A stretch of 64,000 nt of DNA from Algiphilus sp. (GCF_965216485.1 NZ_OZ244162.1:865385-929384); one strand, 5' to 3'; positions 23,205 through 56,317 are shown, counted from the first letter of the stretch. A program made the numbers and translations. The notes: a model not told the origin generated them from the sequence alone.

Positions 23205-23246
23205 GGTCGGGTGCGTCGCCAAGGAAAAAGGGGGGCGGGTACGGTC

Positions 23247-25084: not shown

Positions 25085-25093
25085 GCGAATCAC

Positions 25094-25825: not shown

Positions 25826-25967
25826 GCCCTCGCGCTGGGCGTCATCACCCAGCGGCCATGCTCCTGCCGGCTGGCGTCACGCGCAGCGTTGCGCGAAGAT
25901 GCACGGATTCGCCACGAAAAAGCGCAGATCACGCGCAAACAGAGCGAAGCCAACAGGAGGAGACAGC

Positions 25968-28821: not shown

Positions 28822-28833
28822 GAGACCCCGCGC

Positions 28834-32061: not shown

Positions 32062-32075
32062 GGCAGGCTCCAATG

Positions 32076-36170: not shown

Positions 36171-36446
36171 GCGCTTGGTCTCCTCTTTTCCTGCCCTGTG
36201 GGCATGGCTGGCCGAGCCTCTTCGGGCGGCCTTATGCGTCCGTAATATCCCGAAAATTTTACGACCTGTAAAGACGCCTCGATCTCGATCGTCAGAGGGG
36301 CAGCGGATCGAGGTGATGGCTGCAGGTGATTATTTGACAGCCTGTAAATAAATCGCGCAGCATGTCGTCGTCAAGGGCACTCGCACCGGGGGAGATGCCC
36401 GCGGAGCGCTGGGCGAACAGTCACGGCCCAAGAGGAGTTGGGGGAG

Positions 36447-37292: not shown

Positions 37293-37306
37293 GCGGGGAG
37301 AACCGC

Positions 37307-38386: not shown

Positions 38387-38416
38387 CACCTGCCATTCGA
38401 TTTCTTTGAGACCCCG

Positions 38417-39547
38417 ATGACCAAGCCCTATCTGCTGTACGGCTGGCAACTGTCCTATTTCAGCGGCAAGGCGCGCGCCTATCTGCGCTACAAGCAGATT
38501 CCCTTCCGCGAGCGGGTGGTGGATGGCTACACCCTGATGCGGCGGATTCCGCGCAAGACCGGGAGCAGTCCGGTCATGCCGGTGGTGGTCACGCCGGAGG
38601 GGGAATGGCTGCAGGACACCACCCATATCATCGAGACGCTGGAAGGTCGCTTTCCCGCGCCTTCCGTCTATCACGAGTCCGCGGCCCTGCGCGTGCTCGC
38701 GCAGTTGCTGGAAGTCTGGGCGGACGAGTGGTGGATTCCCCCCGCGATGCACTACCGATGGTCATATCCCGAAAACGAGGCGCTGTTTCTGAAGGAGGCC
38801 GGGCGCGCATTGCTGCCCTTTGCACCCGGCTTTGTGCAGCGTCGGCTGGCGCGCCGGCCGGCCACCATGCTGAAGAGCTATCTGCCCGGCGTCGGGGTCG
38901 TCCCCGAGCAGTTTGCGCTGATGGAAGCCTGGACCGAGGCCATGCTCGACGCCCTCGACCAGCATTTCGCCAGCCACGATTTCCTGCTTGGCGGGCGCCC
39001 CTGCGTGGCCGATTTCGCCCTCATCGGCCCGCTCTATGCGCATCTGGCCCGGGACCCCTGGCCGCAACGTGCCCTGATCGCGCCGCGTCCGCATCTGCAG
39101 GCCTGGGTGGCGCGCACCCATGCCGGTGCGCAGGGTGATGGGGCGCTGTTCGACATTGCTGCGCTGCCGCCGACCCTGCAGCCGATCCTGCGCGCGCTAC
39201 GCGACGAATTTCTGCCCATGGTGCTTGGCATTCGCGATGCGGTGCTACGGTACGCGGAAGGCGGTACGGGGCAGAAGCCGCGTCTGCCGCGCGCGCTCGA
39301 GTCCATTGATTTTCCCATGGCCGACGGCCGCTTCCACCGTCTGGCCATGCCCTACACGCTGTGGATGATGCAGGGCGTGCAGCGCGGCTATCTGGCGCTC
39401 GACGAGGCACAGCGCACTACGCTGTGCACCGCGATCGGCGGCGGTGCAGCCGCCGAGGCGCTGGCGGCGGACATGGGGCCGCCGCTGCAGCGCACGGGCC
39501 TGCGCGTACGCCTGGCGGAGCCAACCGGCAGCGCGCGCAGCCGTTAG
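38417..39547 (+). CDS. Long glutathione S-transferase-like protein (thioredoxin-fold N-domain), paralog 1
   Basis: LYGWQLSYFSGKARAYLRYKQIPF, LLEVWADEWW..MHYRW and LLGGRPCVADFAL. 376 aa. Confidence 0.7.
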   Translation: MTKPYLLYGWQLSYFSGKARAYLRYKQIPFRERVVDGYTLMRRIPRKTGSSPVMPVVVTPEGEWLQDTTHIIETLEGRFPAPSVYHESAALRVLAQLLEVWADEWWIPPAMHYRWSYPENEALFLKEAGRALLPFAPGFVQRRLARRPATMLKSYLPGVGVVPEQFALMEAWTEAMLDALDQHFASHDFLLGGRPCVADFALIGPLYAHLARDPWPQRALIAPRPHLQAWVARTHAGAQGDGALFDIAALPPTLQPILRALRDEFLPMVLGIRDAVLRYAEGGTGQKPRLPRALESIDFPMADGRFHRLAMPYTLWMMQGVQRGYLALDEAQRTTLCTAIGGGAAAEALAADMGPPLQRTGLRVRLAEPTGSARSR

Positions 39548-39575
39548 GCTACGGCCTTTGTCACCGGAAGATCGC

Positions 39576-40124
39576 ATGTCCCTGAAGCAACGTTTCGAAT
39601 CCGCCTCCCACGCCGCCGTGACGCGCGCCCAGCAATGGGGCGTACCGGTGGAGGAGCTGGAGCGCGTCGTCGATCAGCGCCTGCAGCCCTTGCTGGTCAA
39701 GCACCTGTCGCGTTTCGTGATTCCCTTCGTGCGTCGCTCCGGCGCGCGGGTGGTGGCATTGGAGCCGGGGCGCGTCGCGTGCCGCATGCCGCTGCGCGGC
39801 AACGTCAATCACATCGGCACGATGTACGCCGGTGCCCTGTTCACGCTGGCCGAATTCCCCGGCGGGCCGCTGATGTTGGCCACCTTCGGCATGCGCCGCT
39901 TCATTCCCATCGTGACCGCTCTCGACATGCAGTTCGTACGCGCCGCCAAGAGCGATGTCTCCGTCGAGCTAACGCTGAGCGCGGAAGAGGCCGAGCGCAT
40001 CGAGGCCGAGACCCTGGCCGAAGGCAAGTCAGAATTCGAGGTGCGCGGCGAGCTGAAGGATGCCCAGGGCGAGGTGGTCGCACTCAGCCGCGCGATCTAC
40101 CAGATGCGCCCCAAGCGCCGCTGA
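39576..40124 (+). CDS. Hot-dog fold thioesterase (YiiD C-terminal/DUF4442-like)
   Basis: Start moved to MSLKQRF. GNVNHIGTMYAGALFTLAEFPGG is typical of PaaI/DUF4442-type hot-dog proteins. Confidence 0.65.
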   Translation: MSLKQRFESASHAAVTRAQQWGVPVEELERVVDQRLQPLLVKHLSRFVIPFVRRSGARVVALEPGRVACRMPLRGNVNHIGTMYAGALFTLAEFPGGPLMLATFGMRRFIPIVTALDMQFVRAAKSDVSVELTLSAEEAERIEAETLAEGKSEFEVRGELKDAQGEVVALSRAIYQMRPKRR

Positions 40125-40150
40125 CGGCCGCTTCCCTCACCAGGCCCCGC

Positions 40151-41278
40151 ATGGACGAGACCGCGCCGCGCTATACCGTCTACAAGATGGATATCTCCTA
40201 CTTCAGCGGCAAGCTGGAGGCCTACCTGCGCAACAAGGGCATCGCCTATGCCGCGCAGGACGCGGATGCGCGCACCCTGGATCGCATCCATCGCGCAACC
40301 GGCGCCAAGAAGGTGCCGGCGGTGCAGATGGCGGACGGCCGCTGGCTGTTCGATACCACGCCCATGCTGGACTGGTTCGAGCAACAGCATCCGGAGCCCG
40401 CGCTGGCACCGGCCGATCCGGCGCTGGCCTTCGTCGCAGCGCTGATCGAGGACTATGCCGACGAGTGGCTCTGGCGCCCGGCAATGTGGTGGCGCTGGGA
40501 GCCGGTTCCCACGCGCCTCGCTCTCGGCTGGCGCATTGCCCAGACCGTGAATCTGCCCGCCGTGCACAAGGGCGTCTTCGCGCGCTACTTCGCGCATCGG
40601 CAGCGCCAGACCTGGTTGTGGGACGACGGTGTGGACGCAAGCAATGCTGAGGCGGTGCGCGCGGTCTACCTGCACGAACTCGACACCCTGCAGGCGGTGC
40701 TATCGCAGCAGGCCTATCTTCTTGGCGCGCGGCCGTGCGCGGCGGATTTTGGCTACTTCGCCTCGATGTTCCGGCACTTCGGCAACGACCCCGATCCGGC
40801 CGAGCACATGCGTCGCCGGGCGCCTGCGGTCTATGAGTGGCTTGCCCGTCTCTGGAACGGTTCCCCGCAGCGCTTTGCCGACGAGCCCGCCTGGCAGTGG
40901 CCGGAAGCGCAGCATTGGGCCGGATTATGGCAGCGGATTGCCCAAGACTACCTACCCTATCTGCACGCCAACGCCTGCGCCTATCGCGACGGCAGGAAGC
41001 GCTTTGATGTCGCCTGTGCCGCCTTTGCGCTCAAGGGCACGGTCACCCATCGCTACCGGGTATGGTGCCGGCAGGAATTGCAGCGCCGCTTTGCTGCCTT
41101 GGATGCCGGCGCTCAAGCACGGGTGGAGGCCCTGTTCGCGGCGCATGGCGGCCTGCGGGCCTTGCACGCTGACGGCGTGATCGACGCTGGCATGGGGGAG
41201 CACTTCACCTTGCCCAAGGCGGCCGGTGACTACCGGCCATCGCTACGCGTTGCCCTGATGGGTCAGCCGCGCGACTAG
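40151..41278 (+). CDS. Long glutathione S-transferase-like protein, paralog 2
   Basis: Start moved to MDETAPRY. VYKMDISYFSGKLEAYLRNKGIAY, LIEDYADEWLWRPAMWWRW and LLGARPCAADFGYF. Colinear with paralogs 1 and 3. Confidence 0.7.
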   Translation: MDETAPRYTVYKMDISYFSGKLEAYLRNKGIAYAAQDADARTLDRIHRATGAKKVPAVQMADGRWLFDTTPMLDWFEQQHPEPALAPADPALAFVAALIEDYADEWLWRPAMWWRWEPVPTRLALGWRIAQTVNLPAVHKGVFARYFAHRQRQTWLWDDGVDASNAEAVRAVYLHELDTLQAVLSQQAYLLGARPCAADFGYFASMFRHFGNDPDPAEHMRRRAPAVYEWLARLWNGSPQRFADEPAWQWPEAQHWAGLWQRIAQDYLPYLHANACAYRDGRKRFDVACAAFALKGTVTHRYRVWCRQELQRRFAALDAGAQARVEALFAAHGGLRALHADGVIDAGMGEHFTLPKAAGDYRPSLRVALMGQPRD

Positions 41279-41292
41279 GCCATCCAATGCGT

Positions 41293-41946
41293 TCAGGCTT
41301 TGTCTTGGGGCGGCGAACCGGCCTCGATGCGGCGGATCATGTCGTTGAACACGGCCACGCCGCGATCACGCGAAATGGCGCCGTCGCGCACCAGCTGGCG
41401 CATGCCCCAGAAGCCCATGACGATGATCCAGCTGAACACGCGCGCACTTTCGGTATCCAGGTCCAGTCGCTGCTGCGTCGGCTCCATCCAGACATTGCTG
41501 ATCATCGTGCGGATATTGCGGCGGATGCGGTCCAGCTCCGGCGAATCGCCGGCCGTGCCCGCCATCAATTCCCAAAGCGCGTCGCCGCGCCCCGGCGGCA
41601 TGTCGAGGGTGACCGACTCGGCGCTGACCACAGCCGCCTGCAACCCGTCCGGATGCGCGGCGATGGAGGCGCGCGTCCCCTCCATGACATCGTTGAAGAT
41701 GTGCCATGCGGTCTGCGCCACCAGAGCCTCGAGATTCGAGAAATGGTGATAGACCAGCTGGCGGCTGGTGCCCGCGCGTTCGGCCAGCGCACTCATCGAC
41801 AGGGCGGCCCAGCCGTCGTGCTCCACCAGATCGGCGGCGACCCCGAGCAGCATGTCGCGCCGGTTATCGTGGCTCAGATACTGCCGCTTGCCTTGAGCGG
41901 AGGAGGCGCTGTCACGGGCCTCGGCGCTGTGCTTGGGGGTCTTCAT
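41293..41946 (-). CDS. TetR/AcrR family transcriptional regulator
   Basis: Start moved to MKTPKH. HTH LSMSALAERAGTSRQLVYHHFSNLEALV. Confidence 0.85.
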   Translation of the reverse strand: MKTPKHSAEARDSASSAQGKRQYLSHDNRRDMLLGVAADLVEHDGWAALSMSALAERAGTSRQLVYHHFSNLEALVAQTAWHIFNDVMEGTRASIAAHPDGLQAAVVSAESVTLDMPPGRGDALWELMAGTAGDSPELDRIRRNIRTMISNVWMEPTQQRLDLDTESARVFSWIIVMGFWGMRQLVRDGAISRDRGVAVFNDMIRRIEAGSPPQDKA

Positions 41947-42129
41947 CGCGGCAAGGGTAATGGGCGGACGACGGCCTGTCGATTGCACCCATGCTGCGGC
42001 AGCGCGCCTCCGACCCGATCCCGGCAGGCGCATGGCCCTTCGTCGCAGACAGCGGCCAAATCATCAACACACACCGTGGCGCTGACTTAGCGAATGCGCC
42101 GCGCCAATTACGACCAAGACGAGAACACC

Positions 42130-43050
42130 ATGTCGTTACTGCCTTCCCCGCGCAGCGGGCACGCACCCGCCAACGGGTTGGAACTGGCCTTTGAAGACTA
42201 CGGCGATGCCACCGCCCCGACGGTGGTGATGATCATGGGGCTGGGCACCCAGCTGCTGGGCTGGCCGGAACCACTGATCGCCGAGTTGCTGGAACGCGGC
42301 TTCCGCGTGGTGCGCTTCGACAACCGCGATGTTGGTCTGTCCACCCGCTTGTCAGGGGCCAAGCCCACGGAAGATATCCGCCGCGCCTATTCCAAGTCCC
42401 TGATTGGCCTGCCGGTGCAGGCGCCTTACCGTCTGCAGGATATGGCGCAGGACACGCTGGGCCTGCTTGATGCGCTGCAGATCGAGCGCGCCCATGTGGT
42501 GGGTGCCTCCATGGGGGCGATGATTGGTCAGACGCTGGCCGGCAGCCATGCCGATCGTGTGGCAAGCCTGACCTCGATCATGTCCTCTAGCGGCCACCGT
42601 TGGCTGCGTCCCGGCGATCCGCGCGCCACGCTGCGCCTGTCGCAGCCCCCGCCGGCGCAGGACCCGGAGACCATCGCCCGTCACATGACCGAGACCATGC
42701 GCATCATCGGCAGCAAGCCGCATCTGGCCATGGACGATGCCCAGCGCTACGCCGAGCTCAAGCGTGCCGCTGAGCGTGCCTACTATCCCGCTGGCACGGC
42801 CCGGCAGCTGCTTGCCATCCTCGCCTCCGGCAGTCGGGTGGATCTGCTGCGACGCCTGCGTACGCCCACCTTGGTGCTGCACGGCGAGCACGATCCGCTG
42901 GTGCCCGTGACCCACGGCCGCCACACCGCGCGCTGCATTCCCAAGGCGCGGTTGGAGACTTTCGACGGCATGGGGCACGATCTCCCTCCGGCCCTCATGC
43001 CGCGCTTTGCCGACTTGATTGCCGAACACGCCGCCCAGGCGGTCCGCTGA
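42130..43050 (+). CDS. Alpha/beta hydrolase
   Basis: Nucleophile elbow HVVGASMGAMIG, a C-terminal LVLHGEHDPLVP...GMGHDLP catalytic His context, and VVMIMGLG near the N-terminus. Confidence 0.85.
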   Translation: MSLLPSPRSGHAPANGLELAFEDYGDATAPTVVMIMGLGTQLLGWPEPLIAELLERGFRVVRFDNRDVGLSTRLSGAKPTEDIRRAYSKSLIGLPVQAPYRLQDMAQDTLGLLDALQIERAHVVGASMGAMIGQTLAGSHADRVASLTSIMSSSGHRWLRPGDPRATLRLSQPPPAQDPETIARHMTETMRIIGSKPHLAMDDAQRYAELKRAAERAYYPAGTARQLLAILASGSRVDLLRRLRTPTLVLHGEHDPLVPVTHGRHTARCIPKARLETFDGMGHDLPPALMPRFADLIAEHAAQAVR

Positions 43051-43091
43051 GACCGCCGGGCGAGCGCATAACAGACCACGGGGAGACCACT

Positions 43092-44822
43092 ATGACGACA
43101 ACAATGAAGCGGATGGGCACACGGGGCGCGGCGGTAGTGCTGGCCGCACTGCTAGCGGCCTGCGGCAGCGAGCCGCCGAGCTTTACCGAGCCGGTGCAGA
43201 GCGTGGAGTCGCTGCGCGCGCACAGCACCGAATTCGAGAAGGGCGTGGTGCAGGTCACCGAGGGCGTGCACATGGCCATCGGCTACGGGCTGGCCAACTC
43301 CATCATGGTGGAGGGCGACGATGGGGTGATCATCATCGACACCATGGAAACCCTGGAAGAGGGGCGCGAGGTGCGCGAGGCCTTCCGCACGGTGGTGGAC
43401 AAGCCGGTGCGCGCCATCATTTACACGCATAACCACACCGACCACGTCTTCGGGGCCCAGGCCTTTGTCGACGAGGGCGTGACCCCCGAGGTCTTCGCCC
43501 ATGCCGACACCATGGACTACGTCTACCGGATCATCACCGAGTTCCGGCCCATCGTCACCCGACGCTCGATGCGCATGTTCGGCAATTACCTCGACGACGG
43601 GGTCGTGATCAACAACGGCATCGGCCCCTTCCTGGGCATCGGCCCGGACAGCGAGCTCGGCATCCTTCCGCCCACGCAGACCTTCGAGGACCGCATGAGC
43701 GCGGAAGTGGCGGGTGTGCGCTTCGAACTCGTCCACGCCCCCGGCGAGACCAACGATCAGCTCTTCGTCTGGTTCCCCGATCTGGGCGTGCTGGCACCCG
43801 GGGATAATCTGTACAAGACCTTCCCCAATCTCTACACCATCCGCGGCACGCCGTATCGCTCGCTCAAGGGTTGGGCGGAGAGCATCGACAAGATGCGCGC
43901 GCTGCCGATCGAGCACTTGGTGCCAAGCCATACGCGGCCACTGTCCGGCAAGGAGCAGATTCACCAGACTCTGACCGACTACCGCGACGGCATCCGCTTC
44001 GTCTACGACCAGACCGTGCGGCTGATGAACCAGGGCGCCACCCCCGACGAGATCGCCGAACAGCTGACCCTGCCGCCGCATCTCGCCGAGTCCCCCTATC
44101 TGCAAGAGTTCTACGGCACAGTGGAATGGTCGGCGCGTTCGGTCTTCGCCGGCAATCTCGGCTGGTTCGATGGCAACCCATCGCAGCTCCAGCCGCTGTC
44201 ACCCGGAGATCATGCCGCCCGCATGGCCGACCTGGCCGGCGGCAAGGCCGCCCTGCGCGACCAGGTCCTGGCATCCGCCGAGGCCGGCGATCACCAGTGG
44301 GTGCTACAGCTGTCGGACCACGCGCTGCGGCTCTACCCCGACGACAGTGCAATCACGCAGGCCCGCATCGACGCGCTGACCCATCTCGGGGAACAGTCCG
44401 CCAACCCCAATGCGCGCCACTACTATCTGACGAGTGCACTGGAGCTGCGCGGCCTGGAGATTCCGGTACTCAGCAACGCTGGCGACGAGATGCTGGCCCG
44501 CTTCCCGCTGTCGCGCTTTTTTGCCGCCATTCCGGTCAATCTTGATGCCGCGGCAGCGCTGGAGCTCGACCAGAAAGTGGGTTTCAGCTTCACGGACTCC
44601 GACGAGACCTTCACCATCTGGGTCCGGCGCGGCGTCGCCGAGGTGCGCGACACGCTGATGGAGGACCTCGACATCCACGTCGCCGTGGACTCCCTCGTGT
44701 TCAAGCAGATGCTCGCCCAGCAGCGCAATCCGGCGGTGACCATTGCCAAGGACTTCGAGTACCGCGACGGAGGGCGCGTGGCCTTTGCACGCTTCATGCG
44801 ACTCTTCATGCCGCCGGAATAA
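43092..44822 (+). CDS. Alkyl/aryl-sulfatase, MBL-fold type III (SdsA1/YjcS/Bds1-like), lipoprotein
   Basis: Lipobox LLAACGS. IIYTHNHTDHVFG (HxHxDH), followed by the dimerisation domain and an SCP2-like C-terminal domain, as usual for this family. 576 aa. Confidence 0.85.
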   Translation: MTTTMKRMGTRGAAVVLAALLAACGSEPPSFTEPVQSVESLRAHSTEFEKGVVQVTEGVHMAIGYGLANSIMVEGDDGVIIIDTMETLEEGREVREAFRTVVDKPVRAIIYTHNHTDHVFGAQAFVDEGVTPEVFAHADTMDYVYRIITEFRPIVTRRSMRMFGNYLDDGVVINNGIGPFLGIGPDSELGILPPTQTFEDRMSAEVAGVRFELVHAPGETNDQLFVWFPDLGVLAPGDNLYKTFPNLYTIRGTPYRSLKGWAESIDKMRALPIEHLVPSHTRPLSGKEQIHQTLTDYRDGIRFVYDQTVRLMNQGATPDEIAEQLTLPPHLAESPYLQEFYGTVEWSARSVFAGNLGWFDGNPSQLQPLSPGDHAARMADLAGGKAALRDQVLASAEAGDHQWVLQLSDHALRLYPDDSAITQARIDALTHLGEQSANPNARHYYLTSALELRGLEIPVLSNAGDEMLARFPLSRFFAAIPVNLDAAAALELDQKVGFSFTDSDETFTIWVRRGVAEVRDTLMEDLDIHVAVDSLVFKQMLAQQRNPAVTIAKDFEYRDGGRVAFARFMRLFMPPE

Positions 44823-48886: not shown

Positions 48887-49630
48887 ATGACCCACCTGCT
48901 CTGGGGGGATGCCCTGTTCTGGCTCTTGGCGGTGGTGGGCGTCTTCCTGACCGGCATCTCCAAGAGCGGCTTTGCCGGTGGCGCCGGCGTGGTGGCGGTG
49001 CCCTTGCTGGCGCTGGTGGTCTCACCGGCCCTGGCCGTCACCCTGATGCTGCCGCTCTTGCTGGTCATGGATGCGCAGATCATCACGCATCACCGCCGCA
49101 CCCTGTGCCCCGGCGAACTGCGTGCCTTGCTGCCGGCTGCCCTCGTCGGCATTGCGCTGGGCAGCTATCTGCTGACCGCGCTGCCCGAGGCGCCGCTGCA
49201 GCTGCTGCTGGGCGGCATGTGCATCGCCTTTGCCGCCGTGCAGTGGCGGCGGCCGCGTCTCGCCGCGCGCCGCGGGCTGGGTGCCGTGATGGGGGTCATC
49301 GCCGGTGTCACCAGCACGCTGATCCACGCCGGCGGTCCGCCGCTGAACATGTATCTGGCCACCCGGCAACTGGCACGGGCGGTCTGGCTGTCCACTGCGG
49401 CGGCCTTCTTTGCCAGCATCAATGTCGTCAAGGTCTTCGCCTATCAGGCGGTCGACCTGTGGGAGCTGGACGCGCTGCTGCTCAGTGCCGTGCTATTGCC
49501 GGTGGCGGTGGCCGGCATTCTTGCCGGGCATCGCATCCAGGCGGTGCTGGATGAGGCCACTTTTCAGCGCGGTGTCATGCTCTGTCTTGGATTCTCGGGG
49601 CTGCTGCTGATCGCCAAGGGGTTGGCGTGA
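48887..49630 (+). CDS. Sulfite exporter TauE/SafE family membrane protein
   Basis: 247 aa, polytopic. GISKSGFAGGAGVVAVPLL and GGPPLNMYL are typical TauE/SafE motifs. Confidence 0.85.
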   Translation: MTHLLWGDALFWLLAVVGVFLTGISKSGFAGGAGVVAVPLLALVVSPALAVTLMLPLLLVMDAQIITHHRRTLCPGELRALLPAALVGIALGSYLLTALPEAPLQLLLGGMCIAFAAVQWRRPRLAARRGLGAVMGVIAGVTSTLIHAGGPPLNMYLATRQLARAVWLSTAAAFFASINVVKVFAYQAVDLWELDALLLSAVLLPVAVAGILAGHRIQAVLDEATFQRGVMLCLGFSGLLLIAKGLA

Positions 49631-49651: not shown

Positions 49652-50839
49652 TCAGCCGAACAGCCGCATGGCGTACCAGTAGACGCCCATGCCGGCAGCC
49701 GAGGCGGTCATTGCCGGCGCCAGTGGCAACCGGACGCGGTTTGCTGCGCGTAGCAGCGGCCAGGCGATGGCAAGCAGCAAAAGCTGCCCGGTTTCCACCC
49801 CGAGATTGAAGCCCAGCAGCGCCAGCACGCGCGACTCCGGCGGAAGCGCCATGTCGTTGAGAATGCCGGCGAAGCCGAAGCCATGGAACAGGCCGAAGGC
49901 AGCAGTCAGGGTCAGCCGCAGCGCAGCGCCTTGGGCGGCATCGCGTGTCGCCAGGCCCATGTAGCTGATCGTGGCGAGCACGATGCCCGCCACCACCAGC
50001 CAGGGCATCACCGGTGACAGCGCCGCGAGCAGCAGCAATGCCGCAGCCAGGGGCACCGCGAGGCGGCGCGCGCCAGCATCCTGACGCACCGCGCTGTCGA
50101 GTGCGACCAGCACGATGGACAGCGCGATGAAGGCTTCCACCGCGCCACTGTCGGGCCGGGCGATGTCCAGAACCGCCAGCGCCAGGGTCAGGCTGTGACC
50201 GACGGTGAAACCGGTGGCGAGGATGACCACTTCGCGCAGGCGGCGCGCAGCCACGATCAAGGCGAGCAGGAAGACCAGATGATCCCAGCCGGTGAGGATG
50301 TGGATCACGCCCAGCGCGAAGAAGGCGGAAACGCCTTCGGGGGCGTTGCCGCTATCGGCACGCTGATCGGCACGCCAATGCCAGCTGTGGGCATCCCGCG
50401 TGAGTACCGCAGTATCCGGGGCGTCGGCGTCGCGCTGCAGGCTGGCGACATGGCTGTGCGCGACGTCGCTGTCGGCGAACAGGCGAAGCTCCACATGGCT
50501 GGGCGTGCCGCGGCAATGCAGCTGCCAGCGGTGGATGAGGTCGCCGGCGCGCAGTTCTGGCAGCAGCGCCGCCTCGGCGCGGCAGGGCCCTTGCGCATCG
50601 TGCAGGCGAAGGCCGCGCTGCAGCAGGGCCGCCGCTTCGCTGCGATAGTCCGCGTGGGAGGGATGCAGACCCAGTCGGGTCAGCTCCTGCTGGGGAATCA
50701 CCATGCGCACGACGGCCCCGGCGTCGCTGGATTGCCAGAAGCTGTGCGAGCTGCTCCGTGTATGGGCTTCGCTGGCTGCACTCCACCAGGCCAGCAGCAC
50801 GATCAGTGCGCCGCTCCAGCCGAGGCTACGGCTGCGCAT
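49652..50839 (-). CDS. HupE/UreJ-like membrane protein with an extra N-terminal periplasmic domain, copy 2
   Basis: Start moved to MRSRSLGW (signal peptide). Motifs IHRWQLHC, GVIHILTGWDHLVF, GHSLTLAL, EAFIALSI, GLFHGFGFAG and FNLGVETGQL. Colinear with copy 1. Confidence 0.8.
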   Translation of the reverse strand: MRSRSLGWSGALIVLLAWWSAASEAHTRSSSHSFWQSSDAGAVVRMVIPQQELTRLGLHPSHADYRSEAAALLQRGLRLHDAQGPCRAEAALLPELRAGDLIHRWQLHCRGTPSHVELRLFADSDVAHSHVASLQRDADAPDTAVLTRDAHSWHWRADQRADSGNAPEGVSAFFALGVIHILTGWDHLVFLLALIVAARRLREVVILATGFTVGHSLTLALAVLDIARPDSGAVEAFIALSIVLVALDSAVRQDAGARRLAVPLAAALLLLAALSPVMPWLVVAGIVLATISYMGLATRDAAQGAALRLTLTAAFGLFHGFGFAGILNDMALPPESRVLALLGFNLGVETGQLLLLAIAWPLLRAANRVRLPLAPAMTASAAGMGVYWYAMRLFG

Positions 50840-51659
50840 CACTGACCTCGACGCCGTAGCGCGCACGCAATGCGTCCAGTCGCTGTGCCAGCAGCGCTTC
50901 GGCGCGTTCCCGCTGCAGCGCGTTGCGCACGGCGTTCTCCACCTGCGCCAGCGCCGGCGTCCGGGCGTGCTCGCGCGTCTCCAAGCGCAGCACAAGAAAG
51001 CGGCCACCGGCTGCCAGTGGCGCAGCGACTTCGCCGGCTTCCAGCGTTGCGACGGCGGCCACCGCCTCGGGTCCGAGGTAGTCGCGCAGGGTATCGGTCG
51101 GCACCAGGCCATCGGGCAGGGGGGCGCGGTCCGCGGTGGGTGGCTGTGCCGATGGCGCGCGCAGGGTCTCGGCCAGGGTCTGGGCCGCTTGGGCGTCGGC
51201 GGCGTACCAGGCGCGCACATGCAACAGGTCCGGGCCGCGGAAGCGTTCCGCATGGGCGTCGAGATAGGCCTGCAGCGCGTCCGGATTCAGCGCCTCGGAT
51301 TCGGCCTCCATGCGAATCATCGCAAGCACTTCGTCGACCAGGGCATCACGCAGACGCGGGGCGCGCAGCGGCAGATCCAGCGCCTTGCCGTATTGCGCGA
51401 GCAGCCGCTCGTTGATGAGCTGGTCGAGCACGTGTGCACGCGTTGCCGCGTCCAGCGGTGCGCGACGATCCGCGGCCACGGCCTGCAGGGCCTCGCGGTA
51501 TTCGTCTTGGGTGATGCCTTCCTCGCCCACGGTGGCGACCAGCGAGGGCTGAGACTGCAGGGCTGGCGCCTGGACCTCGACCAGGCCCATCATGGCCAAC
51601 GCGAGACCGATCAGCAGGCCCGCGATGAGCCAGGGAGTAAAAGCATGCGGTGCGTGCAA
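50826..51659 (-). CDS. Membrane-anchored parvulin-type PPIase-like protein, copy 2 (possibly catalytically degenerate)
   Basis: N-terminal TM WLIAGLLIGLALAMMGL, with the same length and layout as copy 1. The C-terminal domain has GGRFLVLRL where copy 1 has AGLHLVRV. It overlaps the HupE-like gene by 14 nt. Confidence 0.6.
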   Translation of the reverse strand: MHAPHAFTPWLIAGLLIGLALAMMGLVEVQAPALQSQPSLVATVGEEGITQDEYREALQAVAADRRAPLDAATRAHVLDQLINERLLAQYGKALDLPLRAPRLRDALVDEVLAMIRMEAESEALNPDALQAYLDAHAERFRGPDLLHVRAWYAADAQAAQTLAETLRAPSAQPPTADRAPLPDGLVPTDTLRDYLGPEAVAAVATLEAGEVAAPLAAGGRFLVLRLETREHARTPALAQVENAVRNALQRERAEALLAQRLDALRARYGVEVSDAQP

Positions 51660-51739
51660 GCGAAGGCCTCGTGACTAGGAAGGGAACACGGTAGTTGCTA
51701 GTCTACAATTAGACAAAATGTAAAAAAGCGGGAGGGGAC

Positions 51740-53983
51740 ATGCGCCGGATGCTTCGAAAGGTACTGGTGGTGCTCGCACTGGTCGCGCTGATCATCGGGG
51801 TCGTGATCATCGATCGCCAGGGTATGCCGGAGAGCGCCGGCAACATTACGCAGGCGCAACGCGAAGGCGTGCTCTACGACCAGTTGACCCAGCGCAAGGC
51901 GGCGCAGACGCTGGGCGTGGCAGCGCCCAAGCAGATCCTGTTCGGCGATGTGCATGCGCACACCACCTTCTCGATGGACGCCTTTGCGTGGAGTATTCCC
52001 TTGCTCGGGGGGAGCGGGCTGCACCCGCCTGCCGATGCCTGCGACTACGCCCGCTTTGTGGCCAATCTCGATTTCTGGGCGCTGACCGATCACGCCGAAA
52101 GCCTGACGCCGCGCCACTGGCAGATGATCACTGACACCGTGCGGGCCTGCAATGCGGCGGCGGGCGACCCCACCAACCCCGATATGGTGACCTTCGTCGG
52201 CTGGGAATGGACCCAGATGGGCAATACCGCGGAGACCCACTACGGCCATCGCAACGTCTTTCTGCTGCACGACGATCCGGCGCGTACGCCGGTGCGGCCC
52301 ATTGCCTCCGACAGCGTGGCCTTCCGCGCCATGCGCAACGATCCGCTGAATCCCTTCGAGAAGTATGTCGGGCCCTATCTGGCCGATTTCTCTTCACGTC
52401 AGCGCCAGTTCGATCAGCAGCACAAGCAGGCCGAGCTGCGCAGCGTGCCAATCTGCGAGGCGGGGGTGCCCGTGCGCGAATTGCCGGCGGACTGCATCGA
52501 ACTGGCTGCCACACCCGCCGAGCTCTTCGACAAGCTGCGCGACTGGGGCTATCCCGCCATGGCGGTACCGCACGGGACCACGTGGGGCTTCTATACGCCG
52601 CCGGGTGCGGACTGGGACAAGCAGGTGGTACCGGAGCAGGCCGACGCCCAGCACCAACGGCTGATCGAGGTCTTTTCCGGGCACGGCAATGCCGAGCCCT
52701 ATCGCTCGTGGCGCGCCATGCGGCGTGATGCCGATGGCGCGCCGGTGTGCCCGCCGCCCACGCCCGATTACCTGCCGGGCTGCCACCGGGCAGGTGAGCT
52801 GATCCGGGCGCGCTGCGCCGATCCTGACAGCGCCGACTGCGACCAGCGCGTGCGCGAGGCACAGCAGGCCTATCTCGCCGCCGGCCGGGCCGGGCATCTG
52901 GTAGTGCCGGGGGCCGAGGTGGCAGACTGGCTGGACGCCGGGCAGTGCCGCGATTGCTATCTGCCGCCGTTGAACCACCGGCCGGGCGGGGCCGTGCAGT
53001 ACATTCTGGCCAAGCGCAACTTCGAGGCGACGGATGACGACGGTGCGCCCTTCGGCCTGCGCTTCGGCTTCATCGGCTCCAGTGACAACCACAACGCGCG
53101 CCCCGGCAACGGCTTCAAGGAGCGCGACCGCAGCGCCATTGCCGATGTCTATGGCGCGCAGAGTGGTTTCGCGCAGCGCTTCTTCGCGGACGCCGCCAAG
53201 CGCGACGGCGATGCGGCCCGTGCCGAGCCCTTCGAACTCGGGGCCAGTCCGTACAACTTCCTGCAGGTGAACGAGTCGGAGCGCCAGGCGTCCTTCTTCT
53301 ACACCGGCGGCCTGATGGCGGTGCACAGCCAGGGGCGTGATCGGCGCGCGATCTGGGACGCCATCGAACGGCGCGAGGTCTACGCCACCTCGGGCGAGCG
53401 CATGCTGCTCTGGTTCGACCTGCTCGACGCCGGCGCACGCGTGCCCATGGGCAGCATCGTTGAAAGCGCACAGTCGCCCACCTTCGAAGTGCGCGCATTG
53501 GGCGCCTTCGAGCAGCGCGACGGCTGTCCGCAGTCGGCCATCGATGCGCTTGGCGCGGACCGGCTGCAGCAGCTTTCCGGCGGCGAGTGCTATCACCCAT
53601 CCGATCAGCGCAAAGCAGTCGAGCGCATCGAGGTGGTCCGTATCCGGCCCCAGATCGCGGCCGACGAAGCCATCGACACCTTGATCGAGGATCCGTGGAA
53701 AGTCCTGCCCTGTCCGGCTGGCGGCAGCGGATGCACGGTGCAGTTCACCGACCCGGACTTTGCGGCCGAGGGGCGCGAGACGATCTACTACGTGCGCGCG
53801 CTGCAGGCACCCACTGCCACCATCAATGCCGGTGGCCTGCGTTGCCGCTACGGGCCCGATGGCGCCTGCGAGGCGGTGGACCCCTGCTACGGCGATACGC
53901 GCACGCCGGCCGAGGACGATTGCACGGCACCGGCACGCGAGCGTGCCTGGTCGTCACCGATCTATCTGCAACCGTCGCGCTGA
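51740..53983 (+). CDS. DUF3604 family protein, cysteine-rich, N-terminal membrane anchor, copy 2
   Basis: GGGAGGGG RBS. TM VLVVLALVALIIGVVII. Motifs GDVHAHTTFSMDAF, LTDHAES, SSDNHNARPG, IYYVRALQ and ERAWSSPIYL. 18 Cys. Confidence 0.8.
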   Translation: MRRMLRKVLVVLALVALIIGVVIIDRQGMPESAGNITQAQREGVLYDQLTQRKAAQTLGVAAPKQILFGDVHAHTTFSMDAFAWSIPLLGGSGLHPPADACDYARFVANLDFWALTDHAESLTPRHWQMITDTVRACNAAAGDPTNPDMVTFVGWEWTQMGNTAETHYGHRNVFLLHDDPARTPVRPIASDSVAFRAMRNDPLNPFEKYVGPYLADFSSRQRQFDQQHKQAELRSVPICEAGVPVRELPADCIELAATPAELFDKLRDWGYPAMAVPHGTTWGFYTPPGADWDKQVVPEQADAQHQRLIEVFSGHGNAEPYRSWRAMRRDADGAPVCPPPTPDYLPGCHRAGELIRARCADPDSADCDQRVREAQQAYLAAGRAGHLVVPGAEVADWLDAGQCRDCYLPPLNHRPGGAVQYILAKRNFEATDDDGAPFGLRFGFIGSSDNHNARPGNGFKERDRSAIADVYGAQSGFAQRFFADAAKRDGDAARAEPFELGASPYNFLQVNESERQASFFYTGGLMAVHSQGRDRRAIWDAIERREVYATSGERMLLWFDLLDAGARVPMGSIVESAQSPTFEVRALGAFEQRDGCPQSAIDALGADRLQQLSGGECYHPSDQRKAVERIEVVRIRPQIAADEAIDTLIEDPWKVLPCPAGGSGCTVQFTDPDFAAEGRETIYYVRALQAPTATINAGGLRCRYGPDGACEAVDPCYGDTRTPAEDDCTAPARERAWSSPIYLQPSR

Positions 53984-53993
53984 GGGGCACGCC

Positions 53994-55019
53994 ATGTCCA
54001 CGCAGAATCGCTATCGCCTGATCGGGAGCACGCCCTCCCCGTACTCCAACAAGCTGCGTGCGCTGATGCGCTATCGCCGCATCCCGCACGACTGGGTGCC
54101 GCGCACTGCGGCCATCGAATCCGAGATCGCCCACGTCAAGCCGCAGCTCGTGCCCATGCTGCGCTTTCCGGACAGTGCCGAGTATCGGGTCGACTCGACG
54201 CCGCTGGCCTACGCCCTGGAGGCGCGACACAGCGCGCGATCGGTCATCCCCGACGATCCCGGCGACGCCTTCGTCTGCCAGCTCATCGAGGATTTCGCGG
54301 ATGAATGGCTGACCAAGATCATGTTCCACTACCGCTGGTTCTACGCGGCGGACGCCGATTTCGCACAGGCCTGGATCGTTGACGAGCATCAACCCGGTGC
54401 CAGTGACACGCGCCGCGCACAGGCCATGGAATACATCCGCCAGCGCCAGGTCGGGCGCATGGCGATGGTGGGTTGCACCGAAAATAACGCCCCGCTGCTG
54501 GAAGCCAGCTTCGCGGCCTTGCTCGACGTGCTCGAAGGCCAACTGCACGGCGCGGCCTATCTCTTCGGCTCGCGGCCCTCGCTCGCCGATTTCGCGCTCT
54601 ACGGGCAGCTCAAGATGCTCGCCACCGATCCAACGCCGCAGGCCATCGTGCGCCAGCGCGCGCCGCGACTGGATGTCTGGCTGCGGATGATGGACGACGC
54701 CTCTGGCGTAGAGGGCCAATGGCACCCCACCGGAGACGCGCCCAGTGCCGTGCTGCGCGGCCTGCTGGAGCTTGTCGGTACCGACTATCTGCCCTTTCTC
54801 GTGGCCAATGACGCCGCCATGGCACAGGGCAGCGAGACGGTGACGGTACCGATTCGCGGTGGCCAATTCGAGCAGGCTCCCTTCGGCTATCAGGTGAAAT
54901 GCCTGCGCAGCCTGCGTGCCGGCTTTGCCGCTCTCTCCGAACCCGATCGGGTGCATTGGTCGCCGGTGCTGGAGGCCACGGGCTGCCTGCCCATGCTGGC
55001 CGAGGGGAGTGCGGCATGA
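53994..55019 (+). CDS. Long glutathione S-transferase-like protein, paralog 3
   Basis: Start moved to MSTQNRYRLIG. Motifs STPSPYSNKLRALMRYRRIPH, LIEDFADEWLTKIMFHYRW and LFGSRPSLADFALY. Lies 10 nt after DUF3604 copy 2. Confidence 0.7.
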   Translation: MSTQNRYRLIGSTPSPYSNKLRALMRYRRIPHDWVPRTAAIESEIAHVKPQLVPMLRFPDSAEYRVDSTPLAYALEARHSARSVIPDDPGDAFVCQLIEDFADEWLTKIMFHYRWFYAADADFAQAWIVDEHQPGASDTRRAQAMEYIRQRQVGRMAMVGCTENNAPLLEASFAALLDVLEGQLHGAAYLFGSRPSLADFALYGQLKMLATDPTPQAIVRQRAPRLDVWLRMMDDASGVEGQWHPTGDAPSAVLRGLLELVGTDYLPFLVANDAAMAQGSETVTVPIRGGQFEQAPFGYQVKCLRSLRAGFAALSEPDRVHWSPVLEATGCLPMLAEGSAA

Positions 55020-56317
55020 GTGCCCAGCAACCCCGGCCGCCGCTGAAGGCGCATGTCGCGCACTGGCTGATCCGCCACCAGAATTCTATCCACCGGCTGC
55101 GTGCGCGCGGCTTCGGTCTCGACGCGCTGCGCGGGCGCCCGCCGACCTTGGAGCTCTACTATGAGCCAGGTGACCCGCACAGCCATCTTGCCGCGCAATT
55201 GTTGCCGGCGCTCGGCGAGCGGCTGCGCTGCCCGGTGGTGATTCGCGTGGTGGGTGCGCCCGAGGAGGCGCTTTATCCCGAGGCCGACAAGCAGCGGCAG
55301 TGCGCGCTGGACGACGCTGGCATGGTGGCGCCGGCCTACGGGTTGTCCTTCCCGGCTCAGGCGGTACTGCCGGATGCACCCTCGCGTCAGAGAGCGGCAG
55401 CGACGCTGCTGCAGGCCGCCGAGGCCGGCCGCTTCGCCGAGGTGGAGCCCGGCATCGCGCAGGCGCTGTTTCGTGGCGAGGCCATCGCAGTGCCGGATCC
55501 CAGTCCGGATGCGGACGCGGTGGCCCAGCGACTGGCGGAGAATGGCCGTCGCCGCGCGCGCCTGGGGCACTACCTGCCTGGCATGTGGCAGTTCAATGGG
55601 GTCTGGTACTGGGGTGTGGACCGCATGGCGCATCTGGAGGCGGCGTTGCGCGAAGCCGGCCTGCTGCAGGGCGAGAGCCCACTGCTGCGTTGCCAGCCGG
55701 AAGCCGCGCGCCTTCCGGAAGGCCTGTCGGCACAGGCACCGCTGGAGTTCTTCTACAGCTTCCGCAGTCCCTATTCCTACCTGGCAGCGGTGGATGTGCA
55801 GCGGGCGCAGGCGGATTGGCCGGGGCCGATGCATGTGCGGCCGGTGCTGCCAATGGTGATGCGGGGCCTCAAGGTGCCCGCGCGCAAACGGATGTACATC
55901 GTGCGCGACACGTACCGCGAGGCGCAGCGCCGCGGCCTGCCCTTCGGTCTGGTGGCCGACCCGGTAGGGGCGGGGGCGGAGCGCTGCCTGACCAGCTTCA
56001 CCCTGGCCGGCGGCACCACGCAGCAGTTGGCGCTGCTGGTGTCGGCATCGCGGGCCATCTGGTCGCAGGGGGTGGATGTGGCGACCGACGCCGGTCTGCG
56101 TGCGGTGAGCGAGGCGTCCGGCATGGACTGGGCGACAGTACGCGCCAAGCTCGACGACGGCATGGACCTGACGCAGGCGGAAGCGAACCGGCAGGCGCTG
56201 TTCGCGGCGGGCCTCTGGGGGGTGCCCAGTTTCCGCTATGGCCCGCTGGTCACCTGGGGTCAGGACCGCTGGTGGCTGGTTGAGGAGGCACGTCGCCGTG
56301 TGGCGGCGGGTGTCTAG
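55016..56317 (+). CDS. Tandem DsbA-like / 2-hydroxychromene-2-carboxylate isomerase (kappa-GST-like) two-domain protein
   Basis: ATGA overlap with the upstream stop. The second domain has LEFFYSFRSPYSYLA and WGVPSFRYG. The first domain has LELYYEPGDPHSHLA at the equivalent place. Confidence 0.7.
   Translation: MSAQQPRPPLKAHVAHWLIRHQNSIHRLRARGFGLDALRGRPPTLELYYEPGDPHSHLAAQLLPALGERLRCPVVIRVVGAPEEALYPEADKQRQCALDDAGMVAPAYGLSFPAQAVLPDAPSRQRAAATLLQAAEAGRFAEVEPGIAQALFRGEAIAVPDPSPDADAVAQRLAENGRRRARLGHYLPGMWQFNGVWYWGVDRMAHLEAALREAGLLQGESPLLRCQPEAARLPEGLSAQAPLEFFYSFRSPYSYLAAVDVQRAQADWPGPMHVRPVLPMVMRGLKVPARKRMYIVRDTYREAQRRGLPFGLVADPVGAGAERCLTSFTLAGGTTQQLALLVSASRAIWSQGVDVATDAGLRAVSEASGMDWATVRAKLDDGMDLTQAEANRQALFAAGLWGVPSFRYGPLVTWGQDRWWLVEEARRRVAAGV

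Follow-up and report, generated by a model that had tools for sequence, protein, structure and literature searches.

A second copy of a DUF3604/HupE-like/PPIase-like gene trio in Algiphilus sp., joined to GST-like and DsbA-like genes

A 64,000-nucleotide stretch of Algiphilus sp. DNA (GCF_965216485.1 NZ_OZ244162.1:865385-929384; hereafter the window) carries two diverged copies of a trio of genes encoding a DUF3604 protein, a HupE-like protein and a PPIase-like protein. In copy 2 the trio is joined to genes for a GST-like and a DsbA-like protein. This locus raises the question of whether the trio is a functional unit, what it may do, and whether its junction with thiol-transferase-like genes has any functional meaning. 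The genes of the copy-2 region bear only generic names in the source genome, and no literature on the trio or on the GST/DsbA-like genes was found. The explanation that we favour, with a probability of about 0.5, is that a PHP-type hydrolase, DUF3604_2, is matured by the PPI2 and HupE2 proteins and linked to a cytoplasmic thiol-dependent module. The copy-2 trio is a good target for function discovery, not a new principle.

Two trio copies and their conservation

The five genes of the copy-2 region were assigned by Pfam, and inspection of the nucleotide sequence gave their junctions (Table 1). Both approaches agreed with all the coordinates, overlaps and gaps given in an initial annotation made from the sequence alone. 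The TAG stop codon of PPI2 (50828-50826) lies beyond the HupE2 ATG at position 50839, which gives a 14-nt overlap; PPI2 itself starts with TTG, and this start codon is kept in the Algiphilus MAG L003. The divergent intergenic region has 49% GC versus approximately 68% in the surroundings, and 74 of its 80 positions are identical in L003, with 85% identity across the whole region. No match to the sigma-70 consensus was found in these 80 bp, which presumably hold the promoters and operator of both transcription units. A 10-nt gap with a Shine-Dalgarno-like GAGGGG separates the DUF3604_2 stop codon (ending at 53983) from the GST2 ATG (53994); no terminator was predicted between the two genes, and GST2 is probably co-transcribed with DUF3604_2. 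Through an ATGA overlap at 55016-55019, DsbA2 is translationally coupled to GST2.

Table 1. Position and assignment of the features of both trio copies and the associated module genes (positions in the window).
Feature	Position	Strand	Assignment and remarks
Copy-1 trio	29800-33937	-	Pfam; paralogy to copy 2
DUF3604_1	29800-32073	-	lipoprotein; third gene transcribed in copy-1 trio
HupE1	32076-33101	-	second gene transcribed in copy-1 trio
PPI1	33098-33937	-	first gene transcribed in copy-1 trio
SDR	36438-37292	+	Pfam, NCBIfam; listed with the module's other half
TM-anchored RNase Z-like MBL	37307-38386	+	Pfam, NCBIfam
GST1	38417-39547	+	Pfam, NCBIfam
GST3	39635-41278	+	Pfam, NCBIfam
HupE2	49652-50839	-	Pfam HupE_UreJ_2 PF13795, 143 bits
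PPI2	50826-51659	-	Pfam Rotamase_2 41.3 bits, SurA_N_3 38.2, SurA_N_2 36
Divergent intergenic region	51660-51739		AT-rich; 80 bp, 49% GC
DUF3604_2	51740-53983	+	Pfam DUF3604 PF12228, 96.7 bits
GST2	53994-55019	+	Pfam GST_N_3 and GST_C_2; 341 aa
DsbA2	55016-56317	+	Pfam DSBA 75.7 bits, residues 243-424 only; 433 aa

The products of the two copies are clearly related but distant. BLASTP aligned DUF3604_1 with DUF3604_2 at 24% identity (E 4e-8), HupE1 with HupE2 at 34% (E 1e-23), and PPI1 with PPI2 at 32% over the C-terminal half (E 1e-5). The motif blocks previously quoted for the paralogue pairs are all present in both copies, with one correction: the HupE block, given as H(I/E)L.G.DHL, reads HIL.G.DHL in both. 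HupE1 and PPI1 types adjoin DUF3604_1, and HupE2 and PPI2 types adjoin DUF3604_2, so the partners have co-diverged with their DUF3604 subfamily. In other Nevskiales the copy-1 trio lies directly downstream of DUF3604_2, placing the copies side by side. Both copies display the same taxonomic identity gradient and a normal GC content, which favours an ancient duplication followed by vertical descent over a recent acquisition. Judged by their sequences, the two copies represent paralogous subfamilies of ancient origin, and each subfamily has partner subtypes of its own; the identity of approximately 23%, the distinct membrane anchors and the co-diverged partners agree with the initial annotation, which had called this an old duplication or independent acquisition and not a recent repeat. 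A DUF1302 gene lies upstream of the copy-1 trio.

The scan of species-representative genomes revealed at least 595 loci with a relative of the copy-2 DUF3604, and the best 80 of these were analysed. Both HupE and PPI were found within 3.5 kb of DUF3604_2 in 34 of 53 well-flanked loci by an automated count, and four further trio loci had been missed by it due to over-extended ORFs, which brings the proportion to approximately 72%. The remaining 28% or so lack the pair, and some of these loci have DUF3604 alone. Trio loci come from Nevskiales, Moraxellaceae, Binatia and Myxococcota, and three layouts were seen (12 colinear upstream, 11 colinear downstream, 10 divergent), with PPI always directly upstream of HupE. 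Genes of the window with no relation to the trio (LysR, TauE, pirins, isochorismatase) served as a control and turned up again in just 1 of the 80 loci. The PPIase-like/HupE_UreJ_2/DUF3604 trio is thus a real unit, as had been proposed from its presence in two diverged copies, and the neighbourhood census suggested at that time, extended to GST-like and DsbA-like families, found it conserved across phyla in all three gene orders.

The GST/DsbA/MBL module and its junction with the trio

GST2 scores above the gathering cut-offs for GST_N_3 (30.1 versus 22) and GST_C_2 (38.6 versus 24.9), reaches no NCBIfam equivalog at cut-off, and is 27% identical to GST1 over the full length. In DsbA2, sequence searches of the PDB matched 2imd (HCCA isomerase, E 6e-9) and 1r4w (GST kappa); residues S248, S251, P252 and Y253 are invariant in seven orthologues. 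In the N-terminal domain the (D/S)P(H/Y)S and W-G-x-D-R motifs recur, and the layout of two domains is conserved. DsbA2 is therefore predicted to consist of tandem kappa-GST/HCCA-isomerase-like domains. Its C-terminal domain aligns with kappa GST and HCCA isomerase (NahD), keeping the catalytic Ser motif S-P-(Y/F)-S-Y and W-G-x-D-R, but these enzymes have a single domain of approximately 200 aa, whereas DsbA2 has two in 433 aa. Moreover, no nah-pathway (naphthalene/salicylate) genes lie near DsbA2, whose partners are instead long GSTs and a TM-anchored MBL, with sulfatases in more distant relatives. DsbA2 has no CxxC and no export signal, so it resembles these enzymes rather than a DsbA thiol:disulfide oxidoreductase. 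Neither GST2 nor DsbA2 has a signal peptide, as noted initially, or a TM segment, and by these signals both proteins are cytoplasmic.

GST2 and DsbA2 belong to a module of five gene families, one for the DsbA-like protein, one for an RNase Z-like MBL with a TM anchor, and three for long GSTs. In Algiphilus the module is split between the trios, with GST2-DsbA2 at copy 2 and the other half (37.3-41.3 kb) beside copy 1. Among 80 independent loci with DsbA2-type genes, these adjoin GST2 orthologues in 13 and orthologues of the 36438-41278 half in 18; in 15 loci, orthologues of that half are interspersed among the genes of DUF3604 trios. Two loci (L104 and L130) have all five families and no DUF3604. 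In relatives that are more distant, too, the module occurs without DUF3604, frequently next to type I sulfatases and FGE. The trio and the GST/DsbA/MBL module are independent of each other. The earlier suggestion of a cytoplasmic thiol-dependent step downstream of the trio is partly supported, by the predicted location and a physical link in Gammaproteobacteria, but GST2 and DsbA2 are not specific to DUF3604 and are part of a separate five-family module.

The junction of DUF3604_2 with GST2-DsbA2 may then be functionally meaningless, a product of rearrangement in the catabolic-gene-rich regions of Nevskiales and Moraxellaceae. The exact order DUF3604_2-GST2-DsbA2 was found only in Algiphilus (the window and L003) among the DUF3604_2 loci examined. 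Around the 80 DsbA2-type loci, DUF3604 is present at one, and HupE and PPI at none; the trios of Binatia and Myxococcota have no GST, DsbA or MBL genes beside them; the physical link is real but confined to Gammaproteobacteria, and the module's association with sulfatases and FGE points elsewhere. Against chance, however, an orthologue of at least one of DsbA2, MBL and GST1/2/3 lies within 10 kb of DUF3604_2 in approximately 19 gammaproteobacterial loci, in many orders and orientations, whereas unrelated window neighbours do not recur, and in the window one half of the module is attached to each trio. Perlucidibaca has a tight seven-gene operon, DsbA2-MBL-PPI2-HupE2-DUF3604_2-GST1-GST3, with 4-nt overlaps (L015, L016, L028; variants in L031 and L022), and L015 is an isolate genome, that of Perlucidibaca aquatica. 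We regard a meaningless junction as rather unlikely.

A pathway common to the trio and the module is plausible. The interleaving and presumed co-transcription of module genes with DUF3604 trios in Nevskiales and Moraxellaceae suggest a single pathway, in which an ester of a hydrophobic compound would be hydrolysed outside the cytoplasm and its product then processed inside by thiol-dependent enzymes. The absence of DUF3604 at 79 of the 80 DsbA2-type loci means that the link could also reflect lineage-specific co-regulation or mere proximity.

PPI2 and HupE2 as putative maturation partners

In the favoured explanation, the divergently encoded and translationally coupled PPI2-HupE2 pair most likely matures DUF3604_2. 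The domain scores of PPI2 exceed the cut-offs for Rotamase_2 (27), SurA_N_3 (27.2) and SurA_N_2 (28.5), and a TM helix spans residues 11-29. PPI2 resembles the PpiD, SurA and PrsA chaperones in its N-terminal TM anchor and its SurA_N-like and parvulin-like domains. It differs in being much shorter (277 aa), in the loss of the parvulin His, and in having a client that is only presumed. PPI2 reads GGRFLV where PPI1 reads AGLHLV, which agrees with the initial annotation in that the G.H.V-type motif is missing from copy 2; the parvulin G(Y/F/L)H has become GRF, and the motif is lost across the gammaproteobacterial PPI2 type. With the second catalytic His lost, PPI2 lacks the pair of catalytic His residues of an active parvulin. 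PPI2 is probably a membrane-anchored SurA_N-like/parvulin-like protein acting as a chaperone only, and may be a private SurA/PpiD-like chaperone of DUF3604_2. The lipase-specific foldase Lif is an analogue of such a private chaperone for one secreted enzyme, and the PPI2 gene, too, accompanies that of one large secreted enzyme.

HupE2 matches WP_420428407 from Algiphilus sp. at 100% identity. Hydropathy analysis predicts a signal peptide ending in A-x-A|H, a periplasmic domain of approximately 150 aa and about six TM helices. The mature N-terminal His (A25|H26) and H180, D186 and H187, as well as H215, E235, H319 and E349, are kept in at least 85% of 49 HupE orthologues of both types. HupE proteins are characterised by a signal peptide that leaves an N-terminal His, together with H..D-H in their first TM helix. 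HupE2 shares with the HupE/UreJ permeases of hydrogenase and urease clusters its multiple TM helices, signal peptide, N-terminal His, H-x5-D-H in TM helix 1 and a conserved HG, and it is encoded beside the metalloenzyme that it presumably serves. Unlike them, it belongs to the sister family HupE_UreJ_2: the canonical HupE/UreJ model PF04955 gave no match to HupE2 even at E up to 10, and some orthologues show a weak one. It also differs in its extra periplasmic domain with a conserved Cys pair and in having a periplasmic partner enzyme, for which import would be no help. The HupE_UreJ_2 family is not dedicated to DUF3604, since four homologues of approximately 38% identity sit in unrelated gene contexts. 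HupE2 would act as a HupE/UreJ-like metal-binding permease that delivers or inserts metal for DUF3604_2.

HupE/UreJ proteins are secondary Ni/Co transporters that act as importers (PMC2667541). Transport into the cytoplasm is not what a periplasmic enzyme needs, and this speaks against the role proposed for HupE2. It also opens a different explanation, in which the whole trio serves metal acquisition: HupE2 would import Ni, Co or another metal, and DUF3604_2 and PPI2 would assist it, e.g., by freeing, at the membrane surface, metal bound in an organic complex. Conservation of the metal-binding motifs, one HupE_UreJ_2 homologue in a metal-homeostasis context (adjoining BufA1 and two canonical HupE genes), and the CobW/COG0523 metallochaperone gene in the window (23879-25096) are all consistent with uptake. 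Nevertheless, no other member of the trio is as large or as well conserved as DUF3604, which has invariant residues of catalytic type and occurs alone at some loci. No urease, hydrogenase or B12 genes were found near either trio copy in the window, and no metal-responsive regulator or riboswitch beside either copy; the genes nearby encode catabolic hydrolases, GSTs and an SDR. Metal uptake as the purpose of the trio therefore appears doubtful.

DUF3604_2 as a candidate PHP-type metallohydrolase

DUF3604_2, the presumed client of PPI2 and HupE2, matches PF12228 in three to four stretches, with a score far above the gathering cut-off of 20.4, compared to 424 bits for DUF3604_1. The N-terminal TM helix (residues 7-25) and the 18 cysteines attributed to it earlier are both present, and copy 1 carries the lipobox LGGC instead. 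The TM anchor occurs in 111 of 119 subfamily-2 sequences and the lipobox in 81 of 97 sequences of subfamily 1. This single helix would tether DUF3604_2 to the periplasmic face of the inner membrane.

Enzymes of the PHP superfamily have a distorted (beta/alpha)7 barrel and hydrolyse phosphoesters at a bi- or trinuclear metal centre; characterised members include YcdX, histidinol-phosphate phosphatase, CpsB and TrpH/RNase AM. In a Foldseek search with the AF2 model of DUF3604_2 (pLDDT 92.7), the best full-length match was PDB 3e38 (BVU_3505), a PHP-like phosphoesterase with a beta-sandwich domain, itself uncharacterised, with a probability of 0.97-0.98 but a modest score (E only 5e-3, TM-score (TMt) 0.45); PHP domains of Pol III alpha were among the lower matches. 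In the model a predicted barrel precedes a beta-sandwich, an arrangement like that of 3e38. As in PHP phosphoesterases, the invariant set consists of an N-terminal H-x-H-x5-D, then further H, H, H and E, and a C-terminal D-x-H. These residues (H72, H74, D80, H118, H170, H278, E310, D449, H451) are identical in 117 of 117 sequences of both subfamilies, with E120 in 112 of 117, and we tentatively take them, by comparison with the YcdX sites, to correspond to PHP metal-ligand positions. DUF3604_2 differs from PHP phosphoesterases in its size, which is two- to threefold greater and includes long insertions, in being extracytoplasmic and membrane-tethered, in its many invariant Cys and in its dedicated partner genes. 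No sequence-level link to any solved structure or characterised PHP enzyme was detected, even with a profile of 117 sequences, so PHP membership is a prediction from the structure model and motifs. Together, the AF2 model and the invariant His/Asp/Glu set suggest that DUF3604_2 is a PHP-type metallohydrolase that faces the periplasm and has a C-terminal beta-sandwich; it may be a multinuclear-metal hydrolase and is most likely an esterase.

A bolder version of the favoured explanation would make DUF3604 a new class of extracytoplasmic PHP-fold ester hydrolases, matured only by a private PpiD-like chaperone and a HupE-like partner that is a metal insertase and not an importer, with the double-DsbA/GST/MBL module carrying out the cytoplasmic part of one common organo-ester pathway. 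As a whole this is speculative and improbable. If true, the class might comprise, e.g., sulfatases with a fourth type of mechanism or alkyl/aryl phosphoesterases, and surfactant-like or hydrocarbon-derived esters would be its candidate substrates.

All 18 cysteines are invariant in 54 of 54 subfamily-2 sequences, and up to nine disulfides may stabilise the protein. That DUF3604_2 is instead no hydrolase, being a Cys-rich protein for metal binding or redox chemistry, or a scaffold that binds by means of a degenerate PHP-like barrel, would fit these cysteines, the lacking similarity to characterised PHP enzymes and the modest Foldseek scores, but is very unlikely, as only 9 of the 18 Cys are common to subfamily 1 while the His/Asp/Glu set is kept in both, a pattern that fits structural disulfides and a conserved catalytic metal site, and the predicted extracytoplasmic location also favours disulfides. 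RefSeq places the start of DUF3604_2 three codons later, which gives a protein of 744 aa.

Conservation and layout of the DUF3604 trio

The PPIase-like, HupE_UreJ_2 and DUF3604 genes form a trio that is conserved as a unit. When aligned DUF3604 proteins of the copy-2 type were used to scan genomes, one for each species, at least 595 loci with a relative were detected; the best 80 were fetched with 10-kb flanks, and their six-frame ORFs were searched using the proteins of the window. For 53 loci the flanks reach 3 kb or more on either side of DUF3604; among these, an automated count placed both partners within 3.5 kb of it in 34 cases, and four more loci, skipped because of over-extended ORFs, also contain both (~72% in all). 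The gene order is divergent, as in the window, in Algiphilus, Salinisphaera, Solimonas and Sinimarinibacterium, PPI-HupE-DUF3604 in Polycyclovorans and Perlucidibaca, and DUF3604-PPI-HupE in Binatia and Myxococcota, with PPI directly 5' of HupE in every case. As an internal control, the unrelated LysR, TauE, pirin and isochorismatase genes of the window locus recur in one of the 80 loci, from the same genus. This retention of both partners through three gene orders supports the proposal of the initial annotation that the trio is a functional unit. An apparent HupE-DUF3604 fusion (P0168, 839 aa) was rejected as Rosetta-stone evidence, since its HupE part comprises the final ~60 residues only; the in-frame join of a HupE-like end to a lipoprotein DUF3604 is probably a gene-call or frameshift artefact. 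Eight loci share a conserved predicted lipoprotein of ~500-540 aa without a Pfam match, encoded shortly 5' of the trio or operon and absent from the window (L005-L007, L012, L015, L016, L020 at 6238-7866, for example, and L028).

Every element described for copy 2, coordinates and gene content included, was recovered by Pfam searches and sequence reading. The HupE2 and PPI2 genes overlap by 14 nt, the divergent gap measures 80 bp and has 49% GC against ~68% locally, DUF3604_2 and GST2 lie 10 nt apart, and GST2 and DsbA2 overlap at ATGA. The core of the divergent region (51677-51737) is near-identical to that of another Algiphilus genome (L003, a MAG) while the flanking coding DNA is ~85% identical, which points to a conserved regulatory site. 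An imperfect inverted repeat, GACTAGGAA(N13)TTGCTAGTC, lies within the region. No 8-mer pointing to a shared operator is common to the copy-2 and locus-A intergenic regions, a TGTAAA hexamer found in both is too weak to use, and the promoter and terminator scan gave nothing informative.

Features of the window considered in this analysis
Feature	Family or type	Coordinates	Strand	Source
FGE-sulfatase	formylglycine-generating enzyme-like	14907-16067	+	
DUF3299/Big_1 protein		18671-19618	-	
Permease	MacB/FtsX-type	20538-21707	-	
GTPase	CobW/COG0523-type	23879-25096	-	
DUF3604_1	lipoprotein DUF3604	29800-32073	-	
HupE1	HupE	32076-33101	-	
PPI1	PPIase	33098-33937	-	
DUF1302 (copy-1 locus)	DUF1302	33927-36170	-	
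MBL	TM-anchored, RNase Z-like	37307-38386		
GST1	long GST	38417-39547		
GST3 (ORF)	GST	39635-41278		
TetR regulator	TetR_N	41293-42033	-	
Alkylsulfatase-like gene	lipoprotein MBL, SdsA1 type	43092-44822		
TauE	TauE	48887-49630		
HupE2	HupE_UreJ_2	49652-50839	-	Pfam
PPI2	Rotamase_2 + SurA_N	50826-51659	-	Pfam
DUF3604_2	DUF3604	51740-53983	+	Pfam
GST2	GST_N_3/GST_C_2	53994-55019	+	Pfam
DsbA2	DSBA, C-terminal half only	55016-56317	+	Pfam

RefSeq holds Algiphilus sp. proteins identical to HupE2, GST2, DsbA2 and the MBL of the window under generic names ('HupE/UreJ family', 'glutathione S-transferase family', 'DsbA family' and 'MBL fold metallo-hydrolase'). Its 'DUF3604 domain-containing' protein has 744 aa, the window ORF being three codons longer; exact look-ups returned no record for DUF3604_2 of the window or for database protein P0107. 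The NCBIfam search gave no equivalog for any protein of the module. The copy-2 locus thus encodes uncharacterised variants of protein kinds already known, in a conserved cluster and not as a demonstrated new mechanism.

Membrane partners and the two copies

HupE2 is predicted to begin with a signal peptide, followed by ~150 aa of periplasmic domain and some six TM helices. Cleavage between A-x-A and H would expose an N-terminal His that is conserved in 49 orthologues of both types, as are H180, D186, H187, H215, E235, H319 and E349. In these features HupE2 resembles the HupE/UreJ proteins, which are Ni/Co permeases (PMC2667541). That HupE2 is itself a true importer is a less likely reading. 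The HupE_UreJ_2 family is not dedicated to DUF3604: four homologues (~38% identity) sit in other contexts. One of them, in locus L165 (4469-7263), directly follows the genes for a bufferin precursor (BufA1) and two canonical HupE_UreJ proteins, which places the family in a setting of metal homeostasis.

PPI2 combines a TM anchor with SurA_N-like and parvulin-like domains. The histidine of the parvulin G-(Y/F/L)-H motif is kept in PPI1 and in the PPI2 of Binatia and Myxococcota and is lost in gammaproteobacterial PPI2, that of the window included; this loss suggests that the latter act as chaperones rather than catalysts.

Judged by pairwise BLASTP, the paralogue pairs of copies 1 and 2 are related significantly, but distantly: 24% identity for DUF3604 (E 4e-8), 34% for HupE (E 1e-23) and 32% across the C-terminal half of the PPIase (E 1e-5). 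DUF3604 proteins of the copy-1 and copy-2 types form two subfamilies, ~23% identical to each other, with a lipobox in 81 of 97 sequences of subfamily 1 and an N-terminal TM helix in 111 of 119 of subfamily 2, and the HupE and PPI subtypes found beside them differ accordingly. Identity falls off along the same series for both copies (Algiphilus, then Salinisphaeraceae, then other Nevskiales), and the GC content around both is ordinary. These sequence features argue for an ancient duplication of the two copies rather than for acquisition, in line with the old duplication that the initial annotation gave as one option. Additionally, loci of Solimonas, Stagnimonas and Nevskiaceae (L018, L024-L027) have the copy-1 trio immediately 3' of DUF3604_2, so the 18-kb separation in Algiphilus reflects rearrangement of an older super-cluster.

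The GST/DsbA/MBL module

The second module comprises five gene families, namely the double-DsbA protein, the MBL and three GSTs. Its two halves lie apart in Algiphilus, each next to one of the trios: GST1, which is 27% identical to GST2 over the full length, adjoins GST3 and the MBL beside the copy-1 trio. DsbA2 consists of two tandem DsbA-fold domains without CxxC. The C-terminal domain, which can be aligned to HCCA isomerase (2imd) and kappa GST (1r4w), has an intact S-P-Y-S-Y motif; the N-terminal one, for which Pfam at E up to 10 gave no family, carries degenerate forms of the same motifs. The GST3 ORF has 547 aa, with GST domains beginning near residue 180 and orthologues of ~390 aa, and the true start is probably internal.

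Orthologues of the module surround DUF3604_2 in ~19 gammaproteobacterial loci, and in Perlucidibaca they form a single operon, DsbA2-MBL-PPI2-HupE2-DUF3604_2-GST1-GST3, with 4-nt overlaps (L015, L016, L028). Such probable co-transcription in several Gammaproteobacteria suggests that the trio and the module share a pathway. The reverse search started from two-domain DsbA-like genes that are more distant (33-44% identity) and covered 80 metagenomic loci. It found DUF3604 in one locus and HupE or PPI in none, whereas MBL was present in 18, GST2 in 13, GST3 in seven and GST1 in four; L104 and L130 contain the complete set of five families. The two modules are separable. The thiol-dependent downstream step at which the initial annotation hinted is plausible but only partly supported: GST2 and DsbA2 lack predicted export signals and the modules are linked in ~19 loci, yet the module mostly occurs without the trio in this census. 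The census would also suit an incidental juxtaposition of trio and module, which we consider less likely in view of the Perlucidibaca operon.

Unbiased clustering of the same 80 loci yielded type I sulfatases in 24, FGE-sulfatase in eight and DUF1330 in ten, an association with two-domain DsbA-like genes that appears to be previously undescribed; a literature search for the HCCA-isomerase/sulfatase/GST combination returned nothing relevant. Sulfatase-adjoining genes of this kind occur within L083-L162 (e.g., L108 8041-9822 and L118 13281-14201). The window has an FGE-sulfatase gene, but those of its ORFs that were checked include no type I sulfatase. With sulfatase, MBL and alpha/beta-hydrolase neighbours, a shared pathway would possibly act on esters of hydrophobic compounds. 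The taxa concerned (Nevskiales, Perlucidibaca, Binatia, Myxococcota) degrade hydrocarbons and lipids, so the substrate may bear on environmental organo-ester turnover.

The stretch 36438-44822 encodes, in order, an SDR, the MBL, GST1, GST3, TetR, an alpha/beta hydrolase and the alkylsulfatase-like MBL; its MBL, GST, alkylsulfatase, SDR and TetR genes recur beside DUF3604 trios in other Nevskiales and in Moraxellaceae. A cluster of SDRs in 17 loci was rejected because single linkage had merged heterogeneous SDRs in it; the specific association is that of window-type SDR orthologues adjoining copy-1 trios. The TetR gene is conserved (TetR_N 44.7 bits; 160-bit orthologues in L020 and others) and is probably the real gene at its overlap with the plus-strand ORF 41287-42090, which was rejected, having no Pfam match and weak homologues only.

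DUF3604_2 as a predicted metallohydrolase

DUF3604 is a large, widespread family, with thousands of protein clusters in protein searches, and is not known to have a characterised member or a solved relative. Sequence and profile searches of the PDB gave no match, and in the library searched, the literature on DUF3604, PF12228, HupE_UreJ_2 and PF13795 comes to one incidental Chlamydia gene table entry. A first AF2 model from 12 close homologues only (pLDDT 65) was without useful fold matches and was superseded by an AlphaFold model from an alignment of 117 sequences of both subfamilies (pLDDT 92.7, pTM 0.93). Its top full-length Foldseek match, at probability 0.97-0.98 and with modest scores (E 5e-3, TM 0.45), is the structural-genomics entry 3e38 ('two-domain protein containing predicted PHP-like metal-dependent phosphoesterase'); PHP domains of DNA polymerase III alpha rank lower, and the C-terminal part is a generic beta-sandwich. 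None of the 117 sequences departs from H72, H74, D80, H118, H170, H278, E310, D449 and H451, whose H-x-H-x5-D ... D-x-H pattern corresponds to PHP metal sites. No PHP match appeared in Pfam at E up to 10. In view of the nine invariant residues, a non-catalytic DUF3604 is improbable.

The 18 Cys and the TM anchor (residues 7-25) reported for copy 2 were both found, as was the LGGC lipobox of copy 1. Subfamily 2 keeps all 18 Cys without exception, and nine of these are common to subfamily 1. Together with the membrane anchors, this conservation fits a periplasm-facing, disulfide-stabilised metallohydrolase, predicted from the model to be of the PHP type. The trio would then consist of such an enzyme, a chaperone of its own and a membrane protein that handles metal, and if the HupE-like protein does load metal into a periplasmic enzyme, the roles of HupE/UreJ-type proteins would be extended. 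The trio locus is a good target for function discovery, offering as testable outputs a hypothesis for the fold and the catalytic residues, a location outside the cytoplasm, two partners that look obligate, two ancient subfamilies (TM-anchored and lipoprotein) and a recurrent link to an equally uncharacterised GST-like/kappa-GST-like/MBL module, itself tracking with sulfatases.

Elsewhere in the window, the CobW/COG0523-type GTPase lies near the DUF3299/Big_1 protein and the MacB/FtsX-type permease, and 18671-25096 looks like a metal-starvation-type cluster. Directly beside DUF3604_1, 25737-29793 encodes a gluconate 2-dehydrogenase subunit 3-like protein, a GMC oxidoreductase and a ThuA-like lipoprotein; the GMC/Gluconate_2-dh3 pair is also found in L165.
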